From the sequence record NC_005066.1: a stretch of DNA of 64,000 nt; one strand, given 5' to 3'. Position 1 is the stretch's first letter. The number at the start of each line of letters is the position of its first letter. Both the position numbers and the translations under genes were made by a program. The DNA is from Escherichia phage RB49. Positions 2,764-60,687 of this stretch are shown one piece after another. The notes under the pieces were generated by a model. That model did not search any database and was not told the DNA's origin. It worked only from the letters and a program-made list of their open reading frames with translations.

Positions 2764-2826
2764 ACGGTTTCATATAAGTCAACCTTTTGTTTTCGATGGG
2801 GACATTATGATATATCCCCGATCCAG
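2764..2826 (-). promoter_or_regulatory. early-promoter/stem-loop cassette (TTGACA ... CATAAT)
   Basis: minus strand reads TGTTGACA-N17-CATAAT with GGGGA..TCCCC inverted repeat, then leader and ATG. Confidence 0.5.
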
Positions 2827-2839
2827 TGTCAACAGATTT

Positions 2840-3139
2840 TTAATCTTTTTTCAATGCATCCATTACTCGCTCTGCGATCAGTTCTCGTAAGCACTGATAA
2901 CCATGATATTTGATGGCAATGTCACGCAGATCATTAACCAGTTCCCGTACTTCATGGTCTTTCAGATCGTCTCTGTATTTCGATTTAACCGTGTCTTTAG
3001 GTGAATTGTGGATAACCTGAAAACCTTGTTCTGCAATCACTGCGGCTTCGCGCTGGCGTTCATGCTGTACTGTATTTTTGATCAGGTCTGCTTCCATGAA
3101 CTTTGCCATACTCATCATCATGTTATTCTTTTTGCTCAT
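2840..3139 (-). CDS. hypothetical protein
   Basis: 100 aa; ATG at 3137-3139 (MSKKNN...) preceded by GAGGA; ORF-track N-terminus is translated promoter sequence. Confidence 0.45.
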   Translation of the reverse strand: MSKKNNMMMSMAKFMEADLIKNTVQHERQREAAVIAEQGFQVIHNSPKDTVKSKYRDDLKDHEVRELVNDLRDIAIKYHGYQCLRELIAERVMDALKKD

Positions 3140-3204
3140 TATTAAATCCTCATAAAAGAAAAGGGAGACTCCCATTATAGAGAATCTCCCTTGTATGTCA
3201 AGTG
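3140..3204 (-). promoter_or_regulatory. early-promoter/stem-loop cassette
   Basis: minus strand TTGACA-N16-TATAAT flanked by GGGAGA/TCTCCC inverted repeat, between gene 39 stop and next ORF. Confidence 0.5.
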
Positions 3205-5028
3205 TTATGATTGCATCCAAATTTTGCGCTGATCTGCATCTTCACTATAGAGCAAATCGAATAGCTCTTTATAGTTTTCCGGTAACGTGATGATCTCCAT
3301 GACAGGATCGTTGATCACGCGATGATAGTCTGATTCTGTGAGCGATGCTAAACCTTTGATATATCGAATGTTGTAACCTTTGATATTATCTCGGTCGTTC
3401 TCGAAATCTTCTAGGTCATAATACCATCGAACATCATCACCTTTCTTTGGTTCCGCAATGATAATAGGTGTTTTGATAAACCGGATTCGTCCATCTTCGA
3501 ACAATTCAGGCCAACGTGCAAAGAAAGAGATCAGACTAGGTTTAATAGACCCGATCCCGTCAGTATCAGCGTCTGTCATAATCGCAATATTTTTGTATTG
3601 CATAACGTCCAGCGCATCAACACCAAATTGCAAACCAGTGATCGCCATGATGTTAAAAATTTCGGCGTTCTTAACGATCTTTGCCTCTGGTTGTTCCCAC
3701 GTTGTAAGAGTTTTACCTCGCAACGGGAAACCGCCATGTAAATCTTGATCACGTACAGAGATCAGATAGTTGATCGCGGAATCACCTTCCGTCAAAAACA
3801 GGGTAGTTTCTGCGTCAGTTCCAATAAGGTTAGCTTTAACGTGTTTTGCTACCTTAGCCCGTTTCGCTGCCTTTGCTGCCTTAGTCGCTGCCGCTTTATC
3901 TGCTGCCTCTTTGCGTGCCAGGACTACAGCAATAATAGGCATGATAATGTTTTCTTTCTTCGCAATGACTTTAGCCAGCTTTTTAAAATCAAGATCAATA
4001 TGACGCTTGATATCACCAGTCGGGTTAGTCAAGCGTTCTTTTGTCTGTGAATCAAAACGAAGGTTAGGCAATTCACGAACAATAAGAATACAGGTCAATC
4101 CAGATTTAACCGCAGCTTTAGTAACATCAACCTTATATTCTTTCTTGATTCGTTTTACAATCTCTTCACAAAGATCATCTGTCACATAATCAACGTGTGT
4201 TCCCCCGTTTTTGGTAAACAGACCGTTAGCAAAGGATACTGATTTAAAACCTTCTCCCTCGACCGCAGGAACTAGGGCAAGTGAAAAGTTTTTATCTTCA
4301 ATGACAAACGGATCATCATTGTATAGTTTAGCATAATCCTTGAACTTACTAACAATACGTTTACCATTAAACTTAAACGTGATCTTAGGAAATATTACGC
4401 TCAATGATTGCAGACGATCATGAACAATATCTAAAACAGAGTTGTCCATCATATAACCTTCGAAGTGGTCGAAGTCTGGACAAAATGTAACATTTGTTCC
4501 CTTCAATTTTGATGGTTTCGATGACCATGTGATATTTTCAGCACCGTTTGTACATTGAACGGTCATTTCTGTTTCGCCGTCACAGGTCACACCAGTAAAC
4601 CAATCGCTAAAGAAATTTGATAACGACGACCCAACACCGTTCATCCCTTGCGTTAATCGATTGGTATCATCAAAGTTAGACCCTGCTTTTGTTCGTGTCC
4701 ATGCGGCTACAGGTTGCGGAATCTGCGTACCCTCTGGGGTAGTAACCATATGTTGAGGAATACCGCGACCATTGTCTGTTACCGTAACAATATTGTTTTG
4801 GATATCGACGCTAATCACATTGGCAAATTCAAAGTTAGTGCGGATCGCCTCGTCTACAGAGTTGTCGATGATCTCATCAATGATTTTAACCAGTCCAGGA
4901 ACGTATGAAATTTTTGTCCATTTACCGAACAGGAAACGTTGATGTTCTTCGTAAGTTGTTGATCCTATATACATTCCTGCACGCTTAAGGACATGTTCAC
5001 GATCAGATAAAATGCGAAACTCACTCAT
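3205..5028 (-). CDS. 39: DNA topoisomerase II large subunit, fused gp39+gp60 type (GyrB-like ATPase + Toprim)
   Basis: 607 aa; GHKL ATPase motifs (DNGRGIP), Toprim region (MTDADTDG), C-terminal ...RKIWMQS matching the gp60 end; position after rIIA. Confidence 0.9.
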   Translation of the reverse strand: MSEFRILSDREHVLKRAGMYIGSTTYEEHQRFLFGKWTKISYVPGLVKIIDEIIDNSVDEAIRTNFEFANVISVDIQNNIVTVTDNGRGIPQHMVTTPEGTQIPQPVAAWTRTKAGSNFDDTNRLTQGMNGVGSSLSNFFSDWFTGVTCDGETEMTVQCTNGAENITWSSKPSKLKGTNVTFCPDFDHFEGYMMDNSVLDIVHDRLQSLSVIFPKITFKFNGKRIVSKFKDYAKLYNDDPFVIEDKNFSLALVPAVEGEGFKSVSFANGLFTKNGGTHVDYVTDDLCEEIVKRIKKEYKVDVTKAAVKSGLTCILIVRELPNLRFDSQTKERLTNPTGDIKRHIDLDFKKLAKVIAKKENIIMPIIAVVLARKEAADKAAATKAAKAAKRAKVAKHVKANLIGTDAETTLFLTEGDSAINYLISVRDQDLHGGFPLRGKTLTTWEQPEAKIVKNAEIFNIMAITGLQFGVDALDVMQYKNIAIMTDADTDGIGSIKPSLISFFARWPELFEDGRIRFIKTPIIIAEPKKGDDVRWYYDLEDFENDRDNIKGYNIRYIKGLASLTESDYHRVINDPVMEIITLPENYKELFDLLYSEDADQRKIWMQS

Positions 5029-5127
5029 TATTAAACCTCTTCATAACATAACCATAACTTACTGCAACCGCCACAAAGACGGCTGCAACAATCATATTAA
5101 AAATTGAGTGATTGTCAAGTATATGAC

Positions 5128-5301
5128 TCATGACACGCGCACATTTTTATCATAGTACCCGCCATTAATCCCGCGCGGGGCAGTTAATCCCTGTTTGCAT
5201 TCTTTACCACATTCAGGGCATTCTGCCTTTTCACGCTCGGAAATTTTGCGGATTTTCTGAAATTGACCGTGTTCTTCACAAGAATAATCGTATAATGGCA
5301 T
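5128..5301 (-). CDS. zinc-ribbon protein (CxxC...CxxC)
   Basis: 57 aa from ATG at 5299-5301 (MPLYDYSCEEHG...CPECGKEC); SD AAGGGGA. Confidence 0.5.
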   Translation of the reverse strand: MPLYDYSCEEHGQFQKIRKISEREKAECPECGKECKQGLTAPRGINGGYYDKNVRVS

Positions 5302-5302
5302 A

Positions 5303-8855: not shown

Positions 8856-8916
8856 AATTGATTCTCCTTAGTTGGTATGTGTGTATTATTGTCTATCTGG
8901 TTTGTCCTGTCAACAC
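8856..8916 (-). promoter_or_regulatory. early-promoter/stem-loop cassette
   Basis: TTGACA-N17-AATAAT then AAGGAGAATCAA-ATG. Confidence 0.5.
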
Positions 8917-9420: not shown

Positions 9421-9489
9421 AATAAAAAAGCCTCCAATCTTTCGACGGGAGGCATAATAAAACCATTATAGAGTAGTGTCAACTAATTT
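9421..9489 (-). promoter_or_regulatory. promoter plus leader hairpin sequestering the SD
   Basis: minus strand TTGACA-N17-TATTAT, then hairpin GCCTCC..GGAGGC and U-run 10 nt before ATG. Confidence 0.45.
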
Positions 9490-14405: not shown

Positions 14406-14426
14406 AATATAATCCTCTCTAGATAT

Positions 14427-14450
14427 GAAAAAGGGGCACGTAGCCCCTTT
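14427..14450 (-). terminator. rho-independent terminator after uvsX
   Basis: hairpin GGGGC-N5-GCCCC followed by U-run on minus strand. Confidence 0.55.
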
Positions 14451-14460
14451 ACTACCATTG

Positions 14461-15542: not shown

Positions 15543-15770
15543 CTATTCAGTTAATCCGTAATACTTTAATTGCTTCATTGTTATTCGATCTTTGTAATGC
15601 TCTTGAATTAACTTTTTCATCGCATCAACATCGATCGTCACAAATACTTCGTTGCTGTGATTTCCGTGAACTTTCTTGAAATGATCTATGCCTTCCTCAC
15701 GTTCACGTTTAATCTTTTCAATGTCTCTCATAGTATATTTCTCACGTTGGCGGGTATCGTCACCCAACAC
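15543..15770 (-). CDS. hypothetical protein
   Basis: 75 aa, the only ORF between 43 and uvsX. Confidence 0.4.
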   Translation of the reverse strand: MLGDDTRQREKYTMRDIEKIKREREEGIDHFKKVHGNHSNEVFVTIDVDAMKKLIQEHYKDRITMKQLKYYGLTE

Positions 15771-15792
15771 CCGCCATTATACACACTTTATC

Positions 15793-18471
15793 TTAAATGT
15801 CAAACAGGTCCGTAAGCGATGCCACTTTTTCATATTGCAGCTTTGCAGCCGTGGTAATGTTCTCAAGTGGTTTGACGAAAGTCTTATTAAACAACAAAGG
15901 CCAGTCCAACCACTTCAACACCTCCGATTCAATTTCTGGAGGAATACGAGTACCAGACAACCAACCAAAACAGATTTCTCCAAACGGATTTCGATCTTTA
16001 AGCGGTACAATCATAACCTTCTCGCCTTCACGAATCGGATCTAGTCCGAATTTTCGAGCATTACGATTATAACACAATACACTCTTAACCGCATACGGAC
16101 AACCCTTAATCGGATACCCGTTTGAATCGCTGTATTTCTGTAGGTTGTTTGCAGATGATACCGCAGCAACCTCAAGATAATCAAGTTTTCTAAATTCTTG
16201 CTCAAAAATACCGTAGTATTCCTGCAATGACTCTTCACCTTCCTGCAACATACGGCGAATACATTCTTTCAGTGATTTCTGACATGCTTTAGGGGTGGAG
16301 CTACGTTGCGTTTCCAAGCCCATGATTTTTAGCTTAGGTTCAGCAAAGCGCGTTCCTTCCATATCCCAAACATTAAGAGCATAACGCTTTTTGCCAGTCC
16401 AGAATCCACCGATACCCGCAGATTTCAACGGAGGACCAGCAATTGCCTCACGGTCCATAAACATCAAGTGCTCATAGTTGTTCATGTACTCGCATAACTC
16501 GCGATATCCCTTGTCGATAATAGGTTCCATTCGATGTTTACCGAAATTATCAAGGAAGTCAACAAGTTTTTCGGTATCGTCGAAACGGTCTTCCCCGCCA
16601 ACCTTATCAACAACATTGTTAACCAGCACATAAACGGAGTCAGTATCACAATAACGAACATATGCAAAATCAGTTGTTCCGCAAAGCTCGTTTAAGTATT
16701 CGTTAATCTTACGCTCAATCCACTGAATTGCAAGCTGACCGAACAGTGTGATCGCACTAGCGTTACGGAGATCATAAAAACGGAATTTAGGATTCCCCAA
16801 CGCACCATAAAGGGAGTTGATCAAAACTTTTCGAGAAAGCTGGTTTGTATTGCACAAGATCGACTCGTCTTTACATTCTTCCAGCAATTTCTCTAAGGCA
16901 TCTTTGCTCAATTCAGAAAGCATCGATTTAAACGCTTCATCGAAGTCATGACGCACTTCAACGCTATAGCTAATGGTTCCCCCATAAACATGATTTTCAT
17001 CGTGTAGAATCGCTTTACAGAGTTCAGCATTGCGATCACATGCCAACATCATGTTTTTGTACTGCTTACGCTGGTCAAATACCTTTTTAATCTCAATCGG
17101 TACGATACCATGAATATCTTTTCGATACATCCATCCGTTAGGCGAGCAAGAATACTCATCACTAGGACGTGGTGCAGTTTTATTGATATACTCGTGCATC
17201 GGTGCAGCATCAAAAGATCCAGCGATTGTTTCCGGCGAAATGTTGACCTGACGGATGATTGATGGATACAGACTTGTTAAGTCAAAGCTCATCATCCAAC
17301 GGTAAGCATTCGGCACAGGTTCTTTTACAAATGCGCCTGGATACGTCTGCTTAGGCTGTATCTTATTTTCCGGTACTACTTTACCCTCAGCTTTCAGAGA
17401 TCCGAAGATAATAGCATCCCATACTTTCATCGGGTTATAAACATGGTTAAATTTAATCTTTGCATAGAAACATAGACTATACACAAGATCGATAAATCCA
17501 CGCTTTTTATCAATCGCCAGCACACGATCAACGTCGCCGATGTTATAATCGATGTAAAGTTGATGGTTGTCATCACGCAATTTCTTTAACGGACCATCAT
17601 AATCAACCTTACCGATTCCTGTCTCATATTCAGCAACATAATCTAACGCATATGTTGGTTGAGTCGTAAAGCTAAATTTCTTGTACAGGTCAATATAATC
17701 AAGGCTTTCGATCCCCATGATCGTAAATGCTTCACGCTCGTTGCCAAAATCATCCTGTGAGATTCGGGATTTAATCTTACCGCACGGGCTTAGACGGTTA
17801 GCGGTTCTACTTCCGAACTTATTACTGATACGTTTAATGATATATGGAATATCGAATGTTTCTGTGTTCCAGCCAGTGAAACCAACGGGTCGGTTTTCCT
17901 CAAAGAATCGGATGTATTCTAACAGCAATTCATCTTCTGTGTCATAGACGTTATAAACAACGCGCTCTACAATATCAGGTCGAAGAATAGACTTGCTAGA
18001 TTCCCAGATTTCACCGTTTTTTCCTTTCAAATCAAATACAAAGAAACGATCATGTACGGAATCATAATGCGTAATTGCATCGATAGGATATTTCGCTTCT
18101 TCTGGTTTAGGAAATTCTGGGGCAGTGACCTCGATATCAACCCATGCTACACGGATTTTATTTCGGTCATATCGAATCTCGCCTTTATACGTATCAGACA
18201 GATAGGAGATGATAAAATCATCCATCCCTAGCGCCTCTTGCCCCATTTCTCCCATCTTTTTACGCCATTTGTTGGCCTCATTCATAGATGGGAATTTTTT
18301 AGCAATGCAAGGCTTGCCATAGATATCTTTATAATTCGTAACCATACCAGGCGCGGCATGATGAAATAATGTTGGCGTATATTCAACGTAACGCTCTTGT
18401 TCTTGTCCAGCATCATCAATATAACGCTCGTAGATCTTATCACCCACTCGCTCACATGACAGAAAATACAT
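15793..18471 (-). CDS. 43: DNA polymerase (family B)
   Basis: 892 aa from ATG 18469-18471 with AAGGAG SD; exo and pol motifs including YCDTDS; collinear with T4 gp43. Confidence 0.93.
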   Translation of the reverse strand: MYFLSCERVGDKIYERYIDDAGQEQERYVEYTPTLFHHAAPGMVTNYKDIYGKPCIAKKFPSMNEANKWRKKMGEMGQEALGMDDFIISYLSDTYKGEIRYDRNKIRVAWVDIEVTAPEFPKPEEAKYPIDAITHYDSVHDRFFVFDLKGKNGEIWESSKSILRPDIVERVVYNVYDTEDELLLEYIRFFEENRPVGFTGWNTETFDIPYIIKRISNKFGSRTANRLSPCGKIKSRISQDDFGNEREAFTIMGIESLDYIDLYKKFSFTTQPTYALDYVAEYETGIGKVDYDGPLKKLRDDNHQLYIDYNIGDVDRVLAIDKKRGFIDLVYSLCFYAKIKFNHVYNPMKVWDAIIFGSLKAEGKVVPENKIQPKQTYPGAFVKEPVPNAYRWMMSFDLTSLYPSIIRQVNISPETIAGSFDAAPMHEYINKTAPRPSDEYSCSPNGWMYRKDIHGIVPIEIKKVFDQRKQYKNMMLACDRNAELCKAILHDENHVYGGTISYSVEVRHDFDEAFKSMLSELSKDALEKLLEECKDESILCNTNQLSRKVLINSLYGALGNPKFRFYDLRNASAITLFGQLAIQWIERKINEYLNELCGTTDFAYVRYCDTDSVYVLVNNVVDKVGGEDRFDDTEKLVDFLDNFGKHRMEPIIDKGYRELCEYMNNYEHLMFMDREAIAGPPLKSAGIGGFWTGKKRYALNVWDMEGTRFAEPKLKIMGLETQRSSTPKACQKSLKECIRRMLQEGEESLQEYYGIFEQEFRKLDYLEVAAVSSANNLQKYSDSNGYPIKGCPYAVKSVLCYNRNARKFGLDPIREGEKVMIVPLKDRNPFGEICFGWLSGTRIPPEIESEVLKWLDWPLLFNKTFVKPLENITTAAKLQYEKVASLTDLFDI

Positions 18472-18545
18472 AATATAAACTCCTTCATTTACGAAAGACA
18501 CTCATTATAGGGGAATCGACCTAGTTTGTCAATACCCCTATCCCA
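18472..18545 (-). promoter_or_regulatory. sigma70-type promoter for gene 43 with flanking inverted repeat
   Basis: minus strand TTGACA-N17-TATAAT bracketed by TAGGGG/CCCCTA. Confidence 0.55.
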
Positions 18546-18553
18546 TCAGTATC

Positions 18554-20470: not shown

Positions 20471-20565
20471 ATAATCACCTCTCACAAATTACATCATTAA
20501 AACGGGGAGTATTTACACTCCCCACAAACATTATATTAGTCGGTGTAGCTGGAGTCAAGGTCACA
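20471..20565 (-). promoter_or_regulatory. promoter (TTGACT-N17-TATAAT) plus leader hairpin for 44-62 operon
   Basis: promoter overlaps gene 45 3' end; leader hairpin GGGGAGTG..ACTCCCC. Confidence 0.5.
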
Positions 20566-25035: not shown

Positions 25036-25295
25036 CGTACAGACCCCATAGATCCACGCGCAATAACATTCTGGGTAATATCAGCAACCTTATGGGATAC
25101 GATGTTTGTTAGCCCCTCTTTGGTGATATTTTCACGATCAAATGGGATTTCGTCATGAGTCCACAAACCATAGTTAGACCGAAATGATAGCATATACTGA
25201 CCATCTCGCACAACCTCAAATACATGGATCTTAGTGAATTTCGACAAACCTTCGTTGATTTCTTTCAGTGCATTAGTAATCATAACAACCTCCAA
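25032..25295 (-). CDS. hypothetical protein
   Basis: 87 aa ORF between 47 and 46. Confidence 0.45.
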   Translation of the reverse strand: MEVVMITNALKEINEGLSKFTKIHVFEVVRDGQYMLSFRSNYGLWTHDEIPFDRENITKEGLTNIVSHKVADITQNVIARGSMGSVR

Positions 25296-25338
25296 TCAAT
25301 TTTTTAGAGAGTATAACGGGGATTTCTCCCCGCGTCAA

Positions 25339-26364: not shown

Positions 26365-26379
26365 ATTATACATAATCTC

Positions 26380-26934: not shown

Positions 26935-27024
26935 AGTCTCTTCCTCTCTTCGTTTTCGATGCTCTCACTATATCACAGAAAAATAAAAAGGGAAACCCCT
27001 TTCAGAGTCTCCCTTATAAAGCCA

Positions 27025-32608: not shown

Positions 32609-32618
32609 AATAATCACC

Positions 32619-34518: not shown

Positions 34519-34524
34519 TGAAAA

Positions 34525-36387: not shown

Positions 36388-36432
36388 TGTATCACCTATG
36401 AAAAAGCGGGATTTTCTCCCGCTCGTTGATAG

Positions 36433-36927: not shown

Positions 36928-36981
36928 AATATAATCCTCTCGTTGTTAAGTGGGAGTATTATAGCATACTCCCTTTGCATG
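36928..36981 (-). promoter_or_regulatory. early-promoter/stem-loop cassette
   Basis: TTGACA-N16-TATAAT with GGGAGTA/TACTCCC inverted repeat around the -10. Confidence 0.5.
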
Positions 36982-38160
36982 TCAAGCACTAACTTTTTTC
37001 TTTACTGCTTTCACCTTCTGGCGAATTGCTCGAATCTCTTCGATCTCTTTTTCAGTCTCTTTAACAATTTCTTTGCGATTCTGAATATCTGTATCGAGAT
37101 TATCATCAAGTTTAGGCAGCATGTCAATCAAGAACTTTTTAAAGTCTTTCAGGTTTCGGATAACAGCACCTTCACCCATTACCGCCACACCAACACCATC
37201 CGGCAGATCACCAAACAGTTTAACCAGTTCAGACAGATGATCATGGTCTTCTAATGCTTCCTCCGGTTCAGATGGCAGTTCAACAAAGTTATAACGTTCA
37301 TCATTGCTGATCAAGTGATACCAGCAAAGCCCGAAAGATTTCGGTGTATATTCTACACCATCAATTTCAACCGCGTCAACACTTCCATAATCATCTACTT
37401 TAGTTACCTTAAATCCTTGTCCCAGCTTTTGAACAATTTCAACAACATGACTTGATACAGTTTCAGCGGTAAACCAATATGGCAAATTATGCTGATTTGG
37501 CTTGTAGCGTTCACCTACTTTAAATCTCTGACCATCCGCTTGCATAGCATGAAATTGTTGTTTCGTGATTTCCGCGAAGTATTCAAATTCGCCACCATCA
37601 AACACACAAGCCCATTGATCACAAAAACGATCTGCCTTAACAGTTTCACCTTTCGCGGTGATCATGGTAGCCGATCCGTGCAATTCTTCTTCAACCAAAA
37701 AGCCATATTCGACAAAATCAACAAGTTTCATGGCTTCTTTGTGCTCTGGGTCATGCTCTCCCCAGAATCGCTTAAATTCTTGCAAACCTTCTGGTGTAAA
37801 CGAATAACATTTACCTTTTTCAAAGTAAGTCGGCATTACATCCTCTTTCTTGTTCATCGCTTCGTATGCCTCTTTTGAGATGCGTTTAAAGTATTTACGC
37901 TCATCGTGCATAATCATAGTAGCCCAATAATAAACGATATCCTCAGCGGAATAAACTACATCTCCAGCTTCAATAGTAATAACATGACCGTGGTCATCTT
38001 TTTCTAATACTTTAAAGCCCTTTTCGACGATTTCAGCAACCCGAATATGACCACGGCGCGAAGCATCGGTCAGAATAATTGAATAGCGAGAAAAGTCTAG
38101 AAACTCATCTTTACCACCTTCACGGAATGCATAGTAATGACCTTCAAAGAATTTAGCCAT
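36982..38160 (-). CDS. repeat-domain paralog family protein (3 repeats)
   Basis: 392 aa; three copies of the G-K/E-x-Y ... D-G ... D-E-R-[KY]-[YN]-F module. Confidence 0.5.
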   Translation of the reverse strand: MAKFFEGHYYAFREGGKDEFLDFSRYSIILTDASRRGHIRVAEIVEKGFKVLEKDDHGHVITIEAGDVVYSAEDIVYYWATMIMHDERKYFKRISKEAYEAMNKKEDVMPTYFEKGKCYSFTPEGLQEFKRFWGEHDPEHKEAMKLVDFVEYGFLVEEELHGSATMITAKGETVKADRFCDQWACVFDGGEFEYFAEITKQQFHAMQADGQRFKVGERYKPNQHNLPYWFTAETVSSHVVEIVQKLGQGFKVTKVDDYGSVDAVEIDGVEYTPKSFGLCWYHLISNDERYNFVELPSEPEEALEDHDHLSELVKLFGDLPDGVGVAVMGEGAVIRNLKDFKKFLIDMLPKLDDNLDTDIQNRKEIVKETEKEIEEIRAIRQKVKAVKKKVSA

Positions 38161-38216
38161 AATATAATCCTCTCGTTGTTTAAATGGGAGTATCTTACTA
38201 CTCCCGTTTCATCATG
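38161..38216 (-). promoter_or_regulatory. early-promoter/stem-loop cassette
   Basis: TTGACA-N17-TAAGAT with GGGAGTAG/ATACTCCC inverted repeat. Confidence 0.5.
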
Positions 38217-38783
38217 TCAAGCGTTAAATGACTTTTGGATCTCTTTCAGTTCAGCTACTTTATCGGCGCTGAATTTAGCGTAGGTATCATGTCGAATAAT
38301 TTCACTTTCAAGAAAGGTTTCCAGCCGAGATCTATTTTCAATAAGGAACTCTTTCAGGTCTTCCGCGTTCTTGATAAAGATTTTATTGTCAGTAATGTCA
38401 TCTTCAATCGCAAAGGAGATAGAGCGAACTTTACCAAACAAGTTAATCAGATCTTCCAGAGATTCTTCTTTCTTAACTGGTTTCATTTCTTCAAACTGCT
38501 TTTTAGTGATGCGTTTAAAGTATTTGCGCTCGCTTACATCAATCATGATTGACGCACCCTCATAATCATGAGTTTCGACCAAATACACTTTACCCATAAC
38601 ATTAACAGTTAGAACTTTAAAGCCCTTGTGAAGCACACCATACAGGAACTTGTTATGTTGTGGATAGCGTTTAACAAATTCCTCTGCGGACTCAGCATTA
38701 CGGAAAGTGTAATAACGACCTCGTTCAAAAACAGCATCAGTTGAAGACTTAGCCGGATACAATTTATACGTTTTCTGTACCAT
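38217..38783 (-). CDS. repeat-domain paralog family protein
   Basis: 188 aa from ATG 38781-38783; YFERGRYYTFRNAESAEEF and SERKYFKRI. Confidence 0.5.
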   Translation of the reverse strand: MVQKTYKLYPAKSSTDAVFERGRYYTFRNAESAEEFVKRYPQHNKFLYGVLHKGFKVLTVNVMGKVYLVETHDYEGASIMIDVSERKYFKRITKKQFEEMKPVKKEESLEDLINLFGKVRSISFAIEDDITDNKIFIKNAEDLKEFLIENRSRLETFLESEIIRHDTYAKFSADKVAELKEIQKSFNA

Positions 38784-39070: not shown

Positions 39071-39133
39071 TGTTGATTCTCCTTCTTGATTAGATGGGAG
39101 TATTTTACTACTCCCATTTCATGCTGTCAACTA
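39071..39133 (-). promoter_or_regulatory. early-promoter/stem-loop cassette
   Basis: TTGACA-N17-TAAAAT with GGGAGTAG/TACTCCC inverted repeat. Confidence 0.5.
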
Positions 39134-39607
39134 CTATCTTAATCTTTGTATAAATTGTTTCTTATACTTCTTCGTGATCTCTTCTCTTGTATCCGCGTCA
39201 CAATAATCGAAACCTTCTGCGTCCATAATAGCAACCATCTCCGCGCGTGTCAAGCGTGAAAATCGTTTTACTTTATCAACAGCATATTGAGGATGTAAAT
39301 GATTGTTGGTGTAGTCTCCTTTGATGTAATTAACATAGTTTGTAGCCCAAACAACGAAATCAGCACCTAAAGCACCAACACCAAACCGTTTAAAGTCTCC
39401 GGTCAACGATCCTTCTAGGCGGTTGCAACACGAATGAAGCAATCCCCTTACACGGCCTTGCCCTTTCCCATCTAGATCGTGGTCGTGGTCAAGATGGTTT
39501 TTGCTCATATCCTCAAAAAGTGGCAATTGACAAAGGGGGCAAATGCCCCCCTGTTTTTCGAATAGTTCTTGTTTGTACTCTTTAGCACTCTTAGCAGTCA
39601 GTAACAT
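39134..39607 (-). CDS. 49: endonuclease VII (Holliday junction resolvase)
   Basis: 157 aa from ATG 39605-39607 (MLLTAKSAKEYKQ...); CPLCQ...NHLDHDHDL...RGLLHSCCN zinc site; collinear with T4 Endo VII. Confidence 0.88.
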   Translation of the reverse strand: MLLTAKSAKEYKQELFEKQGGICPLCQLPLFEDMSKNHLDHDHDLDGKGQGRVRGLLHSCCNRLEGSLTGDFKRFGVGALGADFVVWATNYVNYIKGDYTNNHLHPQYAVDKVKRFSRLTRAEMVAIMDAEGFDYCDADTREEITKKYKKQFIQRLR

Positions 39608-41983: not shown

Positions 41984-42328
41984 TTATTTCACGTTAACGC
42001 CGTCATCAATCCAGCCGACGCTATTTGGTTTAACAGTTTTACCATAGGATGCATACTTAATCAAGCATGGTTTAACATCATTATCAAATCTTCCTAAACG
42101 TACTCCCAAATCAGGAATATCCATGTATGCGGCTTTATATCCCCATGTGCCATATTCAGAATCAATCTCAACCGGACGGCCTTTAAAAGCATACACTACA
42201 CCGTGACGGTCAATGATAACATAGCAATAACCAGCCGGAAGATACACAGTTTCGCCGTAAACTTTAACTGGAGTAGCCGAAGAGATAAACATAATATAAT
42301 CCTCACATCGTTCATTTGATGCGGTCAT
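41984..42328 (-). CDS. hypothetical protein
   Basis: 114 aa ORF. Confidence 0.4.
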   Translation of the reverse strand: MTASNERCEDYIMFISSATPVKVYGETVYLPAGYCYVIIDRHGVVYAFKGRPVEIDSEYGTWGYKAAYMDIPDLGVRLGRFDNDVKPCLIKYASYGKTVKPNSVGWIDDGVNVK

Positions 42329-42362
42329 TATATGATAACCGCATTTTCATGTCAAACAGTTT

Positions 42363-42960: not shown

Positions 42961-43039
42961 TTTGATTCTCCTTAAGAAAGTGTGTTTCGTTTTGATGTGT
43001 GTAGTATAGGGGATCACCGATCCCCTGTCAACAACTTTT
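42961..43039 (-). promoter_or_regulatory. early-promoter/stem-loop cassette with palindromic spacer
   Basis: TTGACA-GGGGATCGGTGATCCCC-TATACT. Confidence 0.5.
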
Positions 43040-43610: not shown

Positions 43611-43864
43611 AGTTTCCTCAACCAGTTATTAAAGCTAGCAAACCATGATGCTTTTCGTGCTTCTTTTACTTTATGTGCACGAAAACCACTGAAACACCAT
43701 TCATAATCATCACTGAAACATGATTCAACAGGAACACCCGCATTTCGTAGTTCTCTGGTCTTTATCATGAATCCTTGACATAAGGGGCGACCTTCAACAA
43801 TGATAGGAAGTTTAACTTTTTCCATGAAAGTATACCCAGCACGGTCAATAATTTCAATCTTCAT
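43607..43864 (-). CDS. hypothetical protein, MKIEIID paralog 1
   Basis: 85 aa; MKIEIIDRAGYTFMEKVKLPIIVEGR. Confidence 0.45.
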   Translation of the reverse strand: MKIEIIDRAGYTFMEKVKLPIIVEGRPLCQGFMIKTRELRNAGVPVESCFSDDYEWCFSGFRAHKVKEARKASWFASFNNWLRKL

Positions 43865-43882: not shown

Positions 43883-44080
43883 TTATACCGCCCAGGCTTC
43901 ATTTGCACGAAAACACCATTCATACTCAGGAAAATAACCTTTAATTGGTACGCCAGCTTTTTGTAGTTCCTGTGTTTCTACAAGATAATCAAGCCCATAA
44001 CGACGACCTTCCACGATGATAGGAAGTTTAACGCCATTCATGAAAGAAAATCCACCGTCATCAATAATTTCAATTTTCAT
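43883..44080 (-). CDS. hypothetical protein, MKIEIID paralog 2
   Basis: 65 aa; MKIEIIDDGGFSFMNGVKLPIIVEGR. Confidence 0.45.
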   Translation of the reverse strand: MKIEIIDDGGFSFMNGVKLPIIVEGRRYGLDYLVETQELQKAGVPIKGYFPEYEWCFRANEAWAV

Positions 44081-45265: not shown

Positions 45266-45329
45266 CTTTGATTCTCCTTAGTTGGTATGTGTGCATTATA
45301 GCACTATGATTTTCATTGTCAACAACTAA
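45266..45329 (-). promoter_or_regulatory. early promoter cassette (TTGACA-N16-TATAAT)
   Basis: follows terminator, precedes AAGGAGAATCAA-ATG. Confidence 0.5.
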
Positions 45330-45360
45330 AAACAAAAAGGGCTATCCCGAAGGATAGCCC
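45330..45360 (-). terminator. rho-independent terminator
   Basis: hairpin GGGCTATCC-TTCG-GGATAGCCC followed by U-run on minus strand. Confidence 0.6.
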
Positions 45361-45366
45361 ATAAAA

Positions 45367-46143
45367 TTACACGCGAGCACCGTAGATCGTGCCTACTTTA
45401 TCCCAGCGTGGAGCATTACCAGTAACGGCTTTACCAGCAGCACCACCGTTATATTCTGTACCGTTCCCCTGAGTATTACATCTTCCTCCAGCAGCACCAA
45501 CGTTACCGCCCGCACCGCCTGTATATGCACTAAGAGACCCCTCACCAACAGATCCTTTACCCGGAGCGGAAATGGAGCCAGCGGTTGCACCAGAACCCAT
45601 ATTAGAGGAAGACCCACCAGCACCGAATGGGCGACCACCACCGCCACCAAATACTAGTCGACCCCTGTTACCGCCACCACCACCGCCACCACCGCCAGCG
45701 ATAGCACCGTTATTTGTAATTCGTAGACGTGTACCGATAGCGTTATTGATTGCGTTTCCACCAGCAGCGCCAGCCGCGTTACTACCACCGTTACCCCCAC
45801 GTCCGTAGACAGTCACACCGGAGTTAATGATCAATGTTACATATTCGTTTGTTAACGAGCTAGGGAAGTCAAGACAAGGAACGCCAGTAGATTGGGAAAC
45901 AATATTACCCGTGATAGTAATTACTACCGGAGTAGATCCTTGTGCTTTCATCCAGTTAATAAGAGTGTCTTTATTGTAAGAGTTACTAGCACCAATGCTA
46001 TAATGAATCTCTTTAGAGCGTCCGACCATTGCCGACATATACGCCGGACGACCTAAGCGAACAGCTTGCATTGCGGCGCTCATCCACCGTTGACCAGTCT
46101 CGGACACAGCCGATGATCCGACCCAACCTGCTTTAATTGCCAT
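45367..46143 (-). CDS. glycine-rich protein (N-terminal globular region + Gly/Ala/Asn-rich low-complexity C-terminus)
   Basis: 258 aa; runs such as GGGGGGGGGNRGRLVFGGGGGRPFGAGG; GGN codon run raises local GC. Confidence 0.5.
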   Translation of the reverse strand: MAIKAGWVGSSAVSETGQRWMSAAMQAVRLGRPAYMSAMVGRSKEIHYSIGASNSYNKDTLINWMKAQGSTPVVITITGNIVSQSTGVPCLDFPSSLTNEYVTLIINSGVTVYGRGGNGGSNAAGAAGGNAINNAIGTRLRITNNGAIAGGGGGGGGGNRGRLVFGGGGGRPFGAGGSSSNMGSGATAGSISAPGKGSVGEGSLSAYTGGAGGNVGAAGGRCNTQGNGTEYNGGAAGKAVTGNAPRWDKVGTIYGARV

Positions 46144-46197
46144 AAAGTTTCCTCACAAGAAAAGCCCCAATTAAGGGGCATTGATTGATAATATTAC

Positions 46198-46419: not shown

Positions 46420-46507
46420 TTTGATTCTCCTAGAAAGTGTATCTCGTTTCGATGGGTGTATTATGCAATAACACCGGATCGCTGTCAACACTTTCTAAGA
46501 AAAATTT
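46420..46507 (-). promoter_or_regulatory. early promoter cassette (TTGACA-N17-CATAAT)
   Basis: conserved leader CACCCATCGAAACGAGATAC then AGGAGAATCAAA-ATG. Confidence 0.5.
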
Positions 46508-47674: not shown

Positions 47675-47740
47675 TTTGATTCTCCTTTGTTGTCGATGTG
47701 TGCATTATGCTATACTCTATTCCGGTTGTCAACACCTAAA
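47675..47740 (-). promoter_or_regulatory. early promoter cassette (TTGACA-N17-CATAAT)
   Basis: conserved leader and AAGGAGAATCAAA-ATG. Confidence 0.5.
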
Positions 47741-47773
47741 AACGAAAAAGCCACCCTTTCGGATGGCTTTTTG
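47741..47773. terminator. bidirectional rho-independent terminator
   Basis: hairpin AGCCACCC-TTTC-GGATGGCT flanked by A-run and T-run. Confidence 0.6.
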
Positions 47774-57661: not shown

Positions 57662-57740
57662 TTTGATACTCCTTAGTAGTTCGTGTTTCGTTTCGATGGG
57701 TGTATTATGCTATACACCCTCTTGTGTGTCAACAACTTTT
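57662..57740 (-). promoter_or_regulatory. early promoter cassette (TTGACA-N17-CATAAT)
   Basis: conserved leader CACCCATCGAAACGAAACAC then AAGGAGTATCAAA-ATG. Confidence 0.55.
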
Positions 57741-57938: not shown

Positions 57939-58127
57939 TCAACACTTAACGCTATTCAAACGATTTTGAAAGTACATATAGCAAGCATAATTTTGCTTTG
58001 GCTGTACCGTATCAGATAGACACGCTTTTACAGCCTCGCGGTCCGATGGATCTACACCCTCAGCTTTAAGTAATGCTAAAATCTGGTTATAGCGTACTCT
58101 TAGTTGTACTAATGGTTTATCCCCCAT
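57939..58127 (-). CDS. hypothetical protein
   Basis: 62 aa ORF. Confidence 0.4.
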   Translation of the reverse strand: MGDKPLVQLRVRYNQILALLKAEGVDPSDREAVKACLSDTVQPKQNYACYMYFQNRLNSVKC

Positions 58128-58136
58128 ATTACCCCC

Positions 58137-58358
58137 TTATAGTTGATCAGCGATGTAAGCGTGACAAGCGCGGAGTTTCATTAATGCACTACCTTTCACT
58201 TCGCCGACGATGTTCATAACTTCTAAGCGGTCGGATGGATTCATCTTAGAGCACCAGATCTGGTTAGCCAATTCCAGTTTACTCATATTTGGTTCCATCT
58301 CAAACAGTTCACGCTCAAAGTCGATAATTTCTTTTGCTGCGTCTTTAAAGTTAATCAT
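58137..58358 (-). CDS. hypothetical protein
   Basis: 73 aa ORF after cassette RBS. Confidence 0.4.
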   Translation of the reverse strand: MINFKDAAKEIIDFERELFEMEPNMSKLELANQIWCSKMNPSDRLEVMNIVGEVKGSALMKLRACHAYIADQL

Positions 58359-58424
58359 TTTGGTCCTCCCGTTTCGTTGATGGTTGTATTGTAGGGGAGT
58401 TATCCTCCCCTGTCAACACTTTTA
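58359..58424 (-). promoter_or_regulatory. early-promoter/stem-loop cassette with palindromic spacer
   Basis: TTGACA-GGGGAGGATAACTCCCC-TACAAT. Confidence 0.5.
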
Positions 58425-58610
58425 TCAGAAATATGCAATATAGTTTGCCAGTCCTACAGAGTCATCATTCGGCATTGCTTTTACTGCCAGTTCAAACCCT
58501 GCTTCAACTTTCTGTTTAGCGGATTCTTCGTTATAACCCCAGATTACCAGAATAGCTACTACGTTTTCTTTGCTTACTGCTTTCAGTGCTTTAGTGATGC
58601 GACGTGCCAT
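58425..58610 (-). CDS. hypothetical protein
   Basis: 61 aa ORF after cassette RBS. Confidence 0.4.
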   Translation of the reverse strand: MARRITKALKAVSKENVVAILVIWGYNEESAKQKVEAGFELAVKAMPNDDSVGLANYIAYF

Positions 58611-58700
58611 AATTTGATTCTCCGTTTAAGAAAGTGTGTTTCGTTTCGATGGGTGTATTATGCTATAGGCAGGATCTGGTGTCAACAACTTTTTTAAAAA
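58611..58700 (-). promoter_or_regulatory. early promoter cassette (TTGACA-N17-CATAAT)
   Basis: conserved leader CACCCATCGAAACGAAACAC then GGAGAATCAAA-ATG. Confidence 0.55.
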
Positions 58701-58710
58701 AATTTTAGGC

Positions 58711-58740
58711 AATAAAAAAGCCACTCCGAAGAGTGGCTTA
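58711..58740 (-). terminator. rho-independent terminator
   Basis: hairpin AAGCCACTC-TTCG-GAGTGGCTT followed by U-run on minus strand. Confidence 0.6.
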
Positions 58741-58745
58741 TAGGG

Positions 58746-58895
58746 AAGGTAGCGAATCTTCCTTGTCTCCAACCTGCTAGCGGCCTAGCAAGTGAATGCT
58801 TTAGCGTACCGGATCGCCCACATACGCTGTAATAAATGCGGCTAGGTGACGTCCAAATCATTCTAACCGCGCTGTCTTTAGTTCACTATTATTTA
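58746..58895 (-). ncRNA. candidate small structured RNA (not a tRNA)
   Basis: ~150 nt ORF-poor segment between a TATAAATA-type late-promoter match (plus-strand tatttata near 58899-58906) and the terminator; local hairpins GGAAG..CTTCC and TGCTAG..CTAGCA. Confidence 0.2.
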
Positions 58896-59107
58896 TATCG
58901 CTTTCTCTCGCGACGTTTTTGGTCTTCTTCCTTGATAGAGTTAAATGCATCAAAAAGACACATGGCACTAATAATAAACATAACCGTATTTTCTACGATA
59001 TCCCACGGCTTCGCATCAGTACAGATCCCCCAAACGGTAAGAAATGCAAATAAGGCAGAAGAGATCACAAGCATGATACTTGCTAAGATATAAAAAGTCA
59101 TTTTCAT
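58889..59107 (-). CDS. small membrane protein
   Basis: 72 aa, two hydrophobic helices. Confidence 0.4.
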   Translation of the reverse strand: MKMTFYILASIMLVISSALFAFLTVWGICTDAKPWDIVENTVMFIISAMCLFDAFNSIKEEDQKRRERKRYK

Positions 59108-59522: not shown

Positions 59523-59610
59523 CAGATCATAAGAAACCCCAACGCAATAAGAATTGCGTCAAATTTAGTGAACTCCGGTCCACCTATCAACATCATTCGT
59601 TCTATTTCGT

Positions 59611-59853
59611 TCATAGCGTACAAAGCCATTTAAAAGCACCACATAAAGCGAGCAGAATACTAGGTATAAACGAGACCAAAACAAGTTTGCAAAAATCATC
59701 TAAGGTAACACCGGAATAGCTACCTACTGTAACAACACCGATCATCAGACACAGAAAGAAAACAAATGCAATCATAAACAAAGTATTGCTAAACAGTTTA
59801 GTGATCATTAGACACCCCACGACGATCAATTTCAAAAACTTTTTTATCATCAA
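59611..59853 (-). CDS. small membrane protein
   Basis: 80 aa, hydrophobic. Confidence 0.4.
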   Translation of the reverse strand: MMIKKFLKLIVVGCLMITKLFSNTLFMIAFVFFLCLMIGVVTVGSYSGVTLDDFCKLVLVSFIPSILLALCGAFKWLCTL

Positions 59854-60001
59854 CGAAGCATGTCACAACTGCCTCGTTGACTTCCGCAAATTGTTGTGTC
59901 ACCCACTTAAGGTCAGAGCGAAACAATGTTCTATTAATAACAAATGTTTTACCGCTCTTATCCTTACCCATAAATTTTGCTTTACCCATATCCAATTCCA
60001 T
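59798..60001 (-). CDS. hypothetical protein
   Basis: 67 aa ORF; start uncertain. Confidence 0.35.
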   Translation of the reverse strand: MELDMGKAKFMGKDKSGKTFVINRTLFRSDLKWVTQQFAEVNEAVVTCFVDDKKVFEIDRRGVSNDH

Positions 60002-60010
60002 ATTATCACC

Positions 60011-60169
60011 TTATTTGCTAATCGCTAAACCCAATCCGAAGAGAGCACCCGATGCTACAGTATACCCGAAAGTTTCAAAGGCAGTAAAGATATCTAAGCC
60101 ACCAGCTAACAGAGTTGCAGTAAACAGAGTACCAGCTACGAACATAAAAGTTTTACCGATGAATTTCAT
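60011..60169 (-). CDS. small membrane protein (52 aa, below cutoff)
   Basis: hand-translated MKFIGKTFMFVAGTLFTATLLAGGLDIF...; ATG directly after cassette RBS. Confidence 0.35.
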   Translation of the reverse strand: MKFIGKTFMFVAGTLFTATLLAGGLDIFTAFETFGYTVASGALFGLGLAISK

Positions 60170-60236
60170 TTTGATTCTCCTTTCGTTTGTTTGTGGGGGT
60201 ATCTTACTACCCCCCGTTTCATGTTGTCAACTATTT
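60165..60236 (-). promoter_or_regulatory. early-promoter/stem-loop cassette
   Basis: TTGACA-N18-TAAGAT with GGGGGGTA/TACCCCC inverted repeat. Confidence 0.5.
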
Positions 60237-60614
60237 TTAAGAATATTTTACTTCGTCTACAATGTCTTTCATGACATTGATTTCCATTCCGGTCAGAACA
60301 CGTTGGAACATGTGCTGCACATACGCTTTCAGGTATTCATTTGATGGCTTGCTATCGAAAGTCTTTTTAGTGTAGTAGTCATCACCGAAAGCTACTGTAA
60401 TTATATTTTCGTCGTCGTTCCAAGCGATATAAGCAAATTTGCCGTTATCCCAGAAGCGAGCACTAATTGCTACTTTTGTTGAATCGAATCCTACTTCGCT
60501 GTGAGATTCAAGAACTACTTGCGTGCCAGTTTCTTTATGAATGTAGTAGCGGGATACTAAGTCAAAGTTACGGGTGTAGTGACATTCGAATTTATCTTTA
60601 AACATCATCATCAT
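60237..60614 (-). CDS. hypothetical protein
   Basis: 125 aa from ATG 60612-60614 after cassette RBS. Confidence 0.45.
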   Translation of the reverse strand: MMMMFKDKFECHYTRNFDLVSRYYIHKETGTQVVLESHSEVGFDSTKVAISARFWDNGKFAYIAWNDDENIITVAFGDDYYTKKTFDSKPSNEYLKAYVQHMFQRVLTGMEINVMKDIVDEVKYS

Positions 60615-60687
60615 TTTGATTCTCCTAAGTGTGTTTCGTTTCGATATGTGCATTATGCTATAGTCGTTTATGGTTGTCAACAACTAA
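60615..60687 (-). promoter_or_regulatory. early promoter cassette (TTGACA-N17-CATAAT)
   Basis: conserved leader then TTAGGAGAATCAAA-ATG. Confidence 0.55.

Follow-up and report, generated by a model that had tools for sequence, protein, structure and literature searches.

The first 64 kb of the genome of Escherichia phage RB49 (sequence record NC_005066.1; this whole stretch of 64,000 nt is referred to as the window) contain many copies of one arrangement, in which a promoter, a stem-loop and a ribosome-binding site (RBS) precede a small gene on the minus strand. The question raised by the locus is what these cassettes are, and whether they serve to move genes. They are very probably promoter-early stem-loops (PeSLs), compact boundary units of early transcription in T4-like phages of the RB49/Phi1 type. 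As such they are already known, since they belong to a published family and are found here in the genus in which that family was defined. PeSLs were first defined in phages phi1 and RB49, with 52 copies in the former and 51 in the latter (Arbiol, Comeau, Kutateladze, Adamia and Krisch 2010, Genome Biol Evol 2:140; PMC2839356). According to this definition, a PeSL consists of a sigma-70 consensus promoter, an AT-rich upstream region that includes the upstream stop codon, and a Shine-Dalgarno (SD) sequence with a start codon on the 3' side, while the stem-loop, often polyG...polyC, may occupy any of five positions relative to the promoter (PMC2839356). The elements are located mainly in hyperplastic regions upstream of ORFans; they also flank gene 43 and stand beside a few plastic known genes, e.g., gene 43 and nrdD (PMC2839356). 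The RB49/phi1 type was later summarized as TTGACA-N17-TATAAT with a Gn-loop-Cn stem (Comeau et al. 2014; PMC4122927).

Approximately 95 phage records were matched by megablast (segments 40-48 kb and 41-62 kb), all of them RB49-like coliphages of the genus Krischvirus, family Straboviridae; the best matches are 97-98% identical to the window, and none of the matched records is identical to it. The window is about 97% identical to, and collinear with, Phi1, RB49 and GEC-3S, and it starts at the rIIA stop codon, exactly like the Phi1 record. Its gene model was transferred from Phi1: 128 of the 130 Phi1 proteins of the interval mapped in order on the minus strand, mostly with more than 95% identity (ORF084.1 had no match in the window and ORF009.1 only a weak one). 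No tRNAs were found in the window, and an Rfam search of its whole length at gathering thresholds gave no match.

With this gene model, 34 of the 129 gene junctions measure at least 40 bp, and 25 of these 34 carry a sigma-70-type cassette, always on the minus strand; the outermost copies are 2774-2839 and 60612-60724. The estimate of about twenty copies between 2764 and 60687, given in an initial annotation made from the letters alone, was a fair one, as a GC-rich (G-rich/C-rich) hairpin is present in approximately 21 of the 25. Eight further gaps contain a hairpin or terminator without a cassette. The distribution follows that published for PeSLs: 17 cassettes are located at 33-61 kb, where small hypothetical open reading frames (ORFs) cluster, gene 43 is flanked by cassettes (18532 and 15803), and nrdD has a terminator-bearing gap on each side, the downstream one being the full cassette 34428-34524. 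The strand bias is pronounced. TTGACA has 53 minus-strand and 9 plus-strand copies; with a -10-like hexamer behind a spacer of 16-18 nt, the counts are 42 and 1. The full composite, for which a -35 with no more than one mismatch had to be followed by a -10, an SD and the start codon of an ORF of 35 amino acids or more, was found at 36 minus-strand sites and no plus-strand site, compared with a mean of 0.8 (maximum 3) in 30 dinucleotide shuffles. A repeat search blind to promoters returned the cassettes as the top direct-repeat families D1, D2, D5, D6, D8 and D12, and the repeats are fixed in register with the gene starts.

Each cassette combines a near-consensus sigma-70 promoter (TTGACA, 16-18 nt, a -10 hexamer) with a leader, an SD and an ATG. 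The cassette gaps start directly after the stop codon of the upstream gene, and the 30 nt upstream of the intergenic promoters have an A+T content of 0.68, vs 0.61 for intragenic look-alikes (p = 0.004; window, 60%). TTGACA is exact in 20 of the 25 intergenic cassettes and replaced by TTGACG or TTGACT in the rest, with at most two mismatches in the -10. In 24 cassettes an SD and a start codon follow 15-64 nt past the -10 and open an annotated ORF; the exception is 15803, where the scan gave no SD motif and the annotated start of ORF025 lies 44 nt downstream of the -10. The 20-nt leader CACCCATCGAAACGAAACAC is present in five copies at up to two mismatches (0.01 expected), its core CATCGAAA[AC]/CATCGACAA in eight intergenic copies, with one-base variants in two more. 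Two RBS types alternate, AAGGAGAATCAAA-ATG and GAGAGGATTATATT-ATG, and the RBS 16-mer AAGGAGAATCAAAATG has 11 minus-strand copies at up to three mismatches vs 1.3 expected on both strands. The cassettes are the following (the gene named in each entry lies downstream of the whole unit, the number in brackets is the position of the -35, the number between the hexamers is the spacer length in nt, and z refers to the RNA fold of the cassette).

2774-2839, minus strand: PeSL of ORF004; TTGACA(2832)-17-CATAAT; GGGGATAT/ATGTCCCC hairpin around the -10; z -2.74
3140-3204, minus strand: PeSL of ORF005; TTGACA(3201)-16-TATAAT; 13-bp hairpin with the -10 in its loop, then TTTTCTTTT; z -4.07
8856-8916, minus strand: promoter, leader and RBS of srd; TTGACA(8913)-17-AATAAT, AAGGAGAATCAA; without a hairpin; z +1.8
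9421-9489, minus strand: PeSL of modB; TTGACA(9482)-17-TATTAT; GCCTCC...GGAGGC and T6 past the -10, with the SD in the 3' arm; z -2.75
15732-15803, minus strand: PeSL of ORF025, downstream of gene 43; TTGACA(15803)-16-TATAAT, then a 12-bp hairpin; z -4.92
18472-18553, minus strand: PeSL of gene 43; TTGACA(18532)-17-TATAAT; GGGG...CCCC hairpin around the -35 and spacer; z -3.57
20471-20560, minus strand: PeSL of gene 44; TTGACT(20558)-17-TATAAT; hairpin GGGGAGTGTAAATACTCCCC and GTTTT past the -10; z -1.22
25284-25345, minus strand: PeSL of ORF038; TTGACG(25338)-17-TATACT; spacer hairpin CGGGGAG-AAAT-CCCCG; z -2.94
33265-33345, minus strand: PeSL of ORF053; TTGACG(33335)-17-TATACT; spacer hairpin GGGGATC-GCGA-GATCCCC; z -2.13
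34428-34524, minus strand: terminator and promoter of ORF055; AGCCGATCC/GGGTCGGCT and a T-run, then TTGACA(34481)-16-TATAAT; z -3.02
36928-36995, minus strand: PeSL of ORF057; TTGACA(36985)-16-TATAAT; GGGAGTAT/ATACTCCC hairpin around the -10; z -2.28
38161-38230, minus strand: PeSL of frd.2; TTGACA(38220)-17-TAAGAT; hairpin GGGAGTA/TACTCCC; z -3.33
39071-39140, minus strand: PeSL of ORF060; TTGACA(39130)-17-TAAAAT; hairpin ATGGGAGTA/TACTCCCAT; z -3.06
42293-42362, minus strand: PeSL of ORF068; TTGACA(42355)-17-TATAAT; hairpin TGCGGTTAT/ATGACCGCA; z -2.14
42961-43039, minus strand: PeSL of ORF070; TTGACA(43031)-17-TATACT; spacer hairpin GGGGATC-GGT-GATCCCC; long leader; z -1.15
45266-45366, minus strand: terminator and promoter of ORF078; GGGCTATCC/GGATAGCCC and a T-run, TTGACA(45322)-16-TATAAT; right-hand junction of the gp38 indel; z -5.30
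46420-46507, minus strand: promoter cassette of ORF080; TTGACA(46488)-17-CATAAT; leader CACCCATCGAAACGAGATAC; weak stem only
47675-47775, minus strand: terminator and promoter of ORF084; AAAAAGCCATCC/GGGTGGCTTTTT, then TTGACA(47732)-17-CATAAT; z -2.87
51469-51555, minus strand: PeSL of vs.1; TTGACT(51531)-17-TATTAT; CTTTCTG/CAGAAAG stem around the -10; z -4.2
52319-52380, minus strand: PeSL of ORF095; TTGACA(52375)-17-TAATAT; hairpin GGGGGTA/TACCCCC; z -3.39
57662-57740, minus strand: PeSL of ORF113; TTGACA(57732)-17-CATAAT; hairpin GGGTGTAT/ATACACCC; full 20-nt leader; z -3.04
58359-58424, minus strand: PeSL of ORF116; TTGACA(58416)-17-TACAAT; spacer hairpin GGGGAG-GATAA-CTCCCC; z -3.84
58611-58745, minus strand: terminator and promoter of ORF117; AAGCCACTC/GAGTGGCTT and T6, an AT-rich stretch, TTGACA(58685)-17-CATAAT, full 20-nt leader
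60170-60236, minus strand: PeSL of ORF124; TTGACA(60230)-18-TAAGAT; hairpin GGGGGTA/TACCCCC
60612-60724, minus strand: terminator and promoter of ORF125; ACCCCGAAA/TTTCGGGGT and T7, TTGACA(60680)-17-CATAAT, leader; z -3.01

All five published hairpin positions are represented in the window. The hairpin is located upstream of the -35 at 34524, 45366, 47775, 58745 and 60724, over the -35 at 18532, within the spacer at 25338, 33335, 43031 and 58416, over the -10 at 2832, 3201, 36985, 38220, 39130, 42355, 51531, 52375, 57732 and 60230, and downstream of the -10 at 9482, 15803 and 20558. The six sites quoted in the initial annotation read as it described them, on the minus strand and at the positions it gave. 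Some of its wording has to be narrowed. The spacers, called perfect palindromes, do contain inverted repeats, which form hairpins of 6-7 bp with loops of 3-5 nt; TTGACA, given for every copy, is exact in most but reads TTGACG at 33335; and the leader recurs as a core, its full 20-nt form being limited to the five copies mentioned above. Its identification of the cassettes as PeSLs holds for all defining sequence features. The annotation had also allowed that the repeats might be absent from related genomes or unrelated in position; they are conserved in place in 10 relatives, and the GEC-3S record has predicted promoters annotated at 12 homologous sites and terminators at several. Four promoter matches were discarded: TTGACA-18-TAGCAT at 14492 has a complete terminator hairpin after the -10 and is more likely the uvsX terminator, and the intergenic sites 57355, 47956 and 31628 match poorly and have their nearest downstream start codon at a distance of 0 or 253 nt.

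The behavior of the hairpins among relatives is informative as to what has been selected. Sixteen regulatory gaps (40.5-62.5 kb) were aligned with their homologues in 10 relatives, and variant states were counted per position. The -35 does not vary (0.00), and the -10 (0.015), the SD (0.016) and the hairpin arms (0.046) vary little. Values are higher in the leader (0.065) and the upstream region (0.11), and highest in the non-stem spacer (0.24) and the loops (0.26); codon positions 1, 2 and 3 of the same alignments give 0.090, 0.057 and 0.245. Stem arms are approximately five times less variable than loops and spacer (Fisher p = 2e-9). Hairpin arms are thus as constrained as second codon positions, while loops and free spacer drift at an approximately neutral rate.

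Pairing itself was counted directly in nine paralogous hairpins that bracket the -10, as the five hairpin registers provide no single consensus structure for a covariance model. Each of the seven inner pairs is formed in all nine hairpins (63 of 63 cases), with two to four pair types per position. Over all ten pair positions 87% are paired in register, and shifting the 3' partner by 1-3 nt lowers this to approximately 40-52%. RNA folding of 20 cassettes gave z values between -1.15 and -5.30 (-2.1 or lower in 18 of them), and the mean fold z of intergenic promoter matches is -1.96 vs -0.64 for intragenic look-alikes (p = 2e-5). The hairpin is therefore selected for pairing, and neither its arm sequence, its loop sequence nor its position is fixed. 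In the terminator arms at 45366, two substitutions turn pairs into G-U, which pair only in the sense-strand RNA; this might be a small hint of action at the RNA level. The window, kvi and G2494 have the loop GGT in the spacer hairpin at 43031 (42961-43039), whereas the loop of JK32 is the exact reverse complement, ACC, and that of seven other relatives CACGT, with the stem kept in all; the pattern looks like a hairpin-templated inversion or replacement.

A GC hairpin followed directly by a U-tract is found in the five cassettes with the hairpin upstream of the -35 and, in addition, at 3201, 9482 and 20558. The same combination is present in the terminator-only gaps 14406-14460, 26935-27024, 36388-36432, 46144-46197 and 53533-53618. 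Gaps with a hairpin or terminator include the following.

26935-27024, minus strand: terminator, leader and RBS of an HNH gene; AAGGGAGAC.../...GTTTCCCTT and a T-run, CATCGAAAA leader; -35 not clear
36388-36432, minus strand: terminator-only gap upstream of nrdD; GAGCGGGA-GAAAA-TCCCGCTTTTTC
46144-46197, minus strand: hairpin/terminator-only gap upstream of gp38; GCCCC-TTAATT-GGGGC and a T-run; left-hand junction of the gp38 indel
53533-53618, minus strand: terminator-only gap; AAGCCAATCC/GGGTTGGCTT and a T-run; JSE, JK32 and MIZ4 have a homing-endonuclease gene inserted at this site
54657-54718, minus strand: hairpin-only gap; GGGGAGA...TCTCCCC; adjoins the AP2/HNH gene insertion of RB49(OZ), JSE, JK32 and G2248
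55913-55973, minus strand: hairpin-only gap; GGGTAG/CTACCC core conserved, loop hypervariable among relatives

A hairpin of another kind is located in the tk/rI gap (48691-48758): CCCCAGATT...AATCTGGGG enclose a loop with the T4-type late-promoter motif TATAAATA, and no sigma-70 promoter is present in this gap.

The second part of the question, whether the cassettes move genes, was addressed by a survey of indels at 40.5-62.5 kb against 10 relatives (eight events) and at 1-41 kb against Phi1 (two events). The clearest case of cassette involvement is the gp38 module (45326-46197; gp38 at 45367-46143), which four relatives lack (G2248, MIZ4, kvi and G2494). The first three of these read TTGTTGACA-CGGGGAGAAATCCCCG-TATAAT-...CATACCAACTAAGGAGAATCAAA-ATG(ORF078) immediately after the ORF080 stop codon. 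The -35 and the leader/RBS of this junction are those of the ORF078 cassette of the window, and its spacer hairpin, CGGGGAGAAATCCCCG, is that of the 25338 cassette of the window (ORF038). By its sequence the junction is a chimeric PeSL, as the published model would have it. Replacement of the gp38 tail-fibre adhesin by a single chimeric cassette would imply a different receptor-binding arrangement in these three phages. Cassette 52319-52375 has four mosaic forms of its spacer among relatives, some of them like other cassettes.

The remaining indels took other courses. ORF073 and ORF074 are tandem paralogues whose 5' ends (43788-43864 and 44004-44080) form a 77-nt, 79%-identical direct repeat (D10), to which the loss of ORF074 in six relatives is attributed. 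G2494 has a 229-bp insertion between copies of a 16-nt RBS repeat. JK32, Brandy and G2248 contain a 2.1-kb hypothetical gene (approximately 715 amino acids) beside the 47732 cassette; the 328-nt gap 47675-48002 (empty part 47775-48002, upstream of the ORF084 cassette) includes pieces that match both ends of this gene. The gap had been considered as a small-RNA locus, an idea that was rejected: it is a deletion scar in which pieces of both gene ends remain. Three indels are homing-endonuclease genes (53547-53569, 54734-54761 and 26361-26930), located within or next to a gap with a hairpin or terminator, ORF009.1 resembles a tandem duplicate of ORF010, and the loss of ORF111 and a JK32 insertion at 55832 are without explanation. 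Cassette-to-cassette exchange apparently does happen, but as a minority of the gene-content differences in this sample. Of the gene shuffling ascribed to the cassettes in the initial annotation, the gp38 junction inside a chimeric cassette thus stands, while most other indels are otherwise explained.

Two neighboring loci deserve mention. A 184-amino-acid ORF at 26380-26934, between gene 47 and a-gt.4, is missing from Phi1 (a 570-bp indel); by position it corresponds to RB49 ORF040, which the literature names as an AP2/HNH homing endonuclease, and it is a putative enzyme of this kind. ORF049-051 and their neighbors (31245-32613) are tandem paralogues with a 69-nt N-terminal repeat in four copies.

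These observations can be combined into a mechanism. E. coli sigma-70 RNA polymerase would start at TTGACA-N16-18-TAtAAT after an AT-rich stretch; the sequence is present in the window and activity has been published for sister copies. The start is probably the A of CC-ATCGAAAC, 7 nt past the -10, and would give an A/C-rich unstructured leader ending in one of the two strong RBS types, of which GGAGAATCAAA is the commoner. RNA that comes from upstream is probably what the hairpin acts on, whether by termination, by attenuation or by stabilizing 3' ends, and the small-ORF blocks would thereby be insulated from each other. Hairpins upstream of the -35, with their U-tracts, have the form of canonical intrinsic terminators. 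Those that overlap the promoter would be split by the start: the transcript of the cassette itself lacks the 5' arm and is presumably not stopped, while read-through RNA contains the whole hairpin. The result would be a compact stop-and-restart insulator. As a by-product, 60-100 bp of co-oriented similar sequence may allow phage recombination to delete, insert or swap ORF modules, gp38 being one case.

The commoner RBS might add a further step. GGAGAATCAAA has nine exact copies, all at minus-strand RBSs or gene starts (2587, 33266, 42961, 45267, 46420, 47675, 58613, 60170 and 60615), and it fits the strong-site consensus of T4 RegB/S1, GG*AGRAYARAA (the asterisk marks cleavage), at 10 of 11 positions. 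Because of this match, RegB, a nuclease with its gene in the window (regB, 51556-51978), probably inactivates these early mRNAs; the RBS of regB itself is GGAU, as published for RB49. The cassette may therefore also specify early-mRNA shut-off, a point absent from the PeSL papers; RegB is not mentioned in PMC2839356.

Published experiments support the PeSL reading as a whole. In lacZ assays, promoter activity of approximately 13,000 Miller units was measured for PeSL206/205 and inferred for 193/192, and terminator activity was recorded for the PeSL211/210 stem-loop only (PMC2839356). Mini-circles arise by PeSL-PeSL recombination with junctions inside PeSLs, and no recombinase was found by the authors (PMC2839356). 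The RB49 early-promoter consensus fits 5'-end mapping (Desplats et al. 2002, as cited by Nolan et al. 2006, PMC1524935). No Krischvirus or RB49 transcriptome paper was among the top-ranked matches of a full-text search. Several points weigh against this reading. The experimentally tested PeSLs (193/192, 206/205 and 211/210) are all outside the window, so that transcription starts and termination within it are read from sequence. Spacer hairpins and most -10 hairpins have no U-tract and are followed by TATACT..., ATCGAAAC or ATTTAAAC; the promoter-internal hairpins thus appear mostly not to be canonical intrinsic terminators, and their effect on read-through is putative. At 20558, the hairpin and the U-run are entirely downstream of the probable start, and the logic of a split hairpin fails there. 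The degenerate RegB consensus has 15 matches where 9.6 are expected, a number also attained in 4 of 100 shuffles, which is no clear enrichment. Finally, among approximately ten indels only that of gp38 has an end within a cassette.

The last point gives substance to a plainer explanation, by which the cassettes are ordinary early promoters, terminators and RBSs converging on the host optimum, with no special gene-moving role and with indels arising mostly by other routes. The tally of these routes (three homing-endonuclease genes, one paralogue-repeat deletion, one RBS-repeat event, one internal deletion, one duplicate and two unexplained events) fits it, and promoters and leaders of similar design are found in T1-like and Casjensviridae phages, which are unrelated. 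The ATCGA start moreover resembles the start of the T7 A1 promoter. Against this explanation stand the gp38 junction inside a cassette with its chimeric product, the mosaic spacer of 52319-52375 in its four variants, and the published mini-circle junctions inside PeSLs (PMC2839356), and we consider it possible rather than likely.

Two further alternatives concern the hairpins as DNA. The inverted repeats might be double-stranded sites for an operator or recombination protein binding GGGG...CCCC, which would silence promoters or target recombination; such a protein was a speculation of the original authors (PMC2839356), and operator-like sites were also suggested in the initial annotation. Several hairpins do coincide exactly with the spacer or span the -10, and a protein bound there would keep polymerase out; RB49-type phages are without MotA, so that the shut-off of their early promoters is unexplained (PMC1524935). 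A half-site shared by all copies at a fixed spacing was not found, however. There are at least six arm sequences (GGGGATC, GGGGAG, GGGAGTA, GGGGGTA, GGGTGTAT and GCGGTTAT), the loops range from 3 to 12 nt and their sequence changes at an approximately neutral rate, and the five position classes include hairpins 20-40 nt upstream of the -35 with U-tracts. Compensatory differences that keep the pairing, with loops free to vary, speak for a selected structure rather than for a sequence-specific operator, and the G-U substitutions in the terminator arms point to pairing at the RNA level; an operator is accordingly improbable. Alternatively, a hairpin or cruciform could form in the DNA itself, exposing the -10 single-stranded in its loop and making promoter strength dependent on supercoiling, or offering cruciforms that endonuclease VII (gp49, encoded at 39134-39607) would cut to start recombination. 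The strikingly regular geometry of nine cassettes, with most of the -10 hexamer in a 6-nt loop, would suit this idea, and the multi-base loop replacements, including GGT vs its reverse complement ACC at 42961-43039, are those expected of hairpin-templated events. Stems of 6-9 bp are generally short for stable extrusion, though, and other cassettes have the hairpin well away from the -10, which makes this alternative equally improbable. Hairpins that are selected for pairing within a PeSL, and that probably act in RNA, remain the preferred reading.

How closely the cassettes resemble known systems can be stated for several of them. With the PeSLs of RB49/phi1 they share the genus, the positions in collinear genomes, the anatomy with its five hairpin positions, the preference for small ORFs and the flanking of gene 43; at approximately 97% identity of the window there is no essential difference. 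The PeSLs/PmSLs of T4/PST and KVP40/nt-1 are likewise composite terminator/promoter units in variable regions and associated with indels, but have a weaker consensus (TTTACW...TAYWAT or TTGYVH...TAWWAT) and AT-richer stems (A3-4G3-loop-C3T3-4, AGNA-loop-TCNT) that are usually located upstream of the promoter, and some are built on Mot-box middle promoters (PMC4122927). Morons of lambdoid phages (Hendrix et al. 2000, via PMC2839356) resemble them as single small genes with a promoter and terminator of their own and autonomous transcription; morons are often opposed to the surrounding transcription, whereas all window cassettes are co-oriented. Integron cassettes, a comparison made by the PeSL authors, share small ORF modules, excision as circles, reinsertion at repeated sites and expression from the system, but integrons have an integrase and attC/attI, while PeSL exchange would rest on general homologous recombination over approximately 50-100 bp. 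No integrase or transposase is named in the annotations of the region in Phi1, GEC-3S, JSE, JK32, G2248, Brandy, MIZ4, kvi and G2494, with no protein-family search made. Compared with morons and integrons, PeSLs are therefore distinguished as a conserved, co-oriented repeat family dependent on general recombination.

Likenesses outside the T4-like phages were found with distant DNA searches. ORF117, located between two cassettes, has 75-78% DNA identity to a small ORF of T1-like Drexlerviridae, and ORF115/116 has 80% DNA identity to a small ORF of Rogunavirus (BECP10); ORF115, ORF116 and ORF117 span 57970-58620. Upstream of the ORF117 homologue of Escherichia phage tonn (MN850596.1, Drexlerviridae) the sequence reads GCCAGGC-GCAAA-GCCTGGC-ATAAT-AGCCT-CATCGAAACGAGA...GAGG...ATG, and the similarity of the ORF117 module to tonn stops, on its upstream side, within the -10/CATCGAAACGA leader of the cassette. 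This suggests a possible cross-family transfer of cassette-bounded modules in the ORF115-ORF117 region. The tonn genome contains at least 11 cassettes (e.g., 12515, 23179, 13876, 17098 and 19934), in which ATAGCACTTTTTGTTAAAA and a -10-like hexamer are separated by approximately 16-20 nt, often in the form of a GC hairpin, and are followed by leader, SD and ATG; the leader is of the type CATCGA[AC]A[AC] in at least five of them. The T1-like layout, ATAGCACTTTTTGTTAAAA-hairpin-(-10)-CATCGAAAC, differs from that of the window in its upstream box, which is ATAGCACTTTTTGTTAAAA and not TTGACA, and T1-like phages belong to another family with another genome architecture than the RB49 type. It is not described as PeSL-like in PMC2839356, PMC4122927 or the full-text search matches examined.

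In phage E21 (Casjensviridae), a terminator precedes TTGACA-17-TATATT and ACTCACATCG, and a 45-nt stretch is 91% identical to part of the 58685 cassette; matches to the -10/leader segment are further found between genes in many other T4-like phages, with Klebsiella, Enterobacter, Cronobacter and Citrobacter as hosts. DNA searches with 41-49 kb and 49.3-57.3 kb revealed no further cassette-bounded transfers; they returned mostly conserved T4-like genes (gp38, tk, vs.6/grcA), and ORF090/tk.4 matched rV5-like phages. Such likeness may have come about by convergence on the promoter and start region best suited to the host, or by real cross-family exchange through cassette homology. That PeSL-like cassettes extend beyond the T4-like myoviruses, with CATAAT-N5-6-CATCGAAACGA... 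and an SD, often with a GC spacer hairpin, as a cross-family homology patch for small ORFs, is a speculative and on balance doubtful proposal.

Next to the ORF117 cassette, a 144-nt non-coding stretch of the minus strand (58745-58888) separates the ORF118 stop codon from the terminator hairpin 58739-58718. Only 6 of its 144 positions vary among 10 relatives (0.042, vs 0.245 for third codon positions), and it is 96-100% identical in all 57 Krischvirus records, being unannotated in nearly all of them. Its fold has -60.2 kcal/mol (z -2.83), and the overlapping 55-codon ORF shows no third-position bias. No Rfam family was assigned to it: a search of 58600-58900 with an E-value threshold gave only matches far below their gathering scores. 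The element is a candidate structured small RNA or 3'-untranslated-region element.

In summary, the cassettes of the window are a correct rediscovery of a published element family and no new kind of system. What is added here is quantitative support for selection of the hairpin on pairing, together with three leads: the match of the cassette RBS to the RegB site, the T1-like look-alike cassettes and the 144-nt element. It also follows, as a caution, that gene gain and loss among relatives is mostly not cassette-mediated in this 64-kb window. PeSLs nevertheless constitute compact natural insulator-promoter-RBS parts, and they are a concrete candidate for the 'linker' sequences in Botstein's modular theory of phage evolution.

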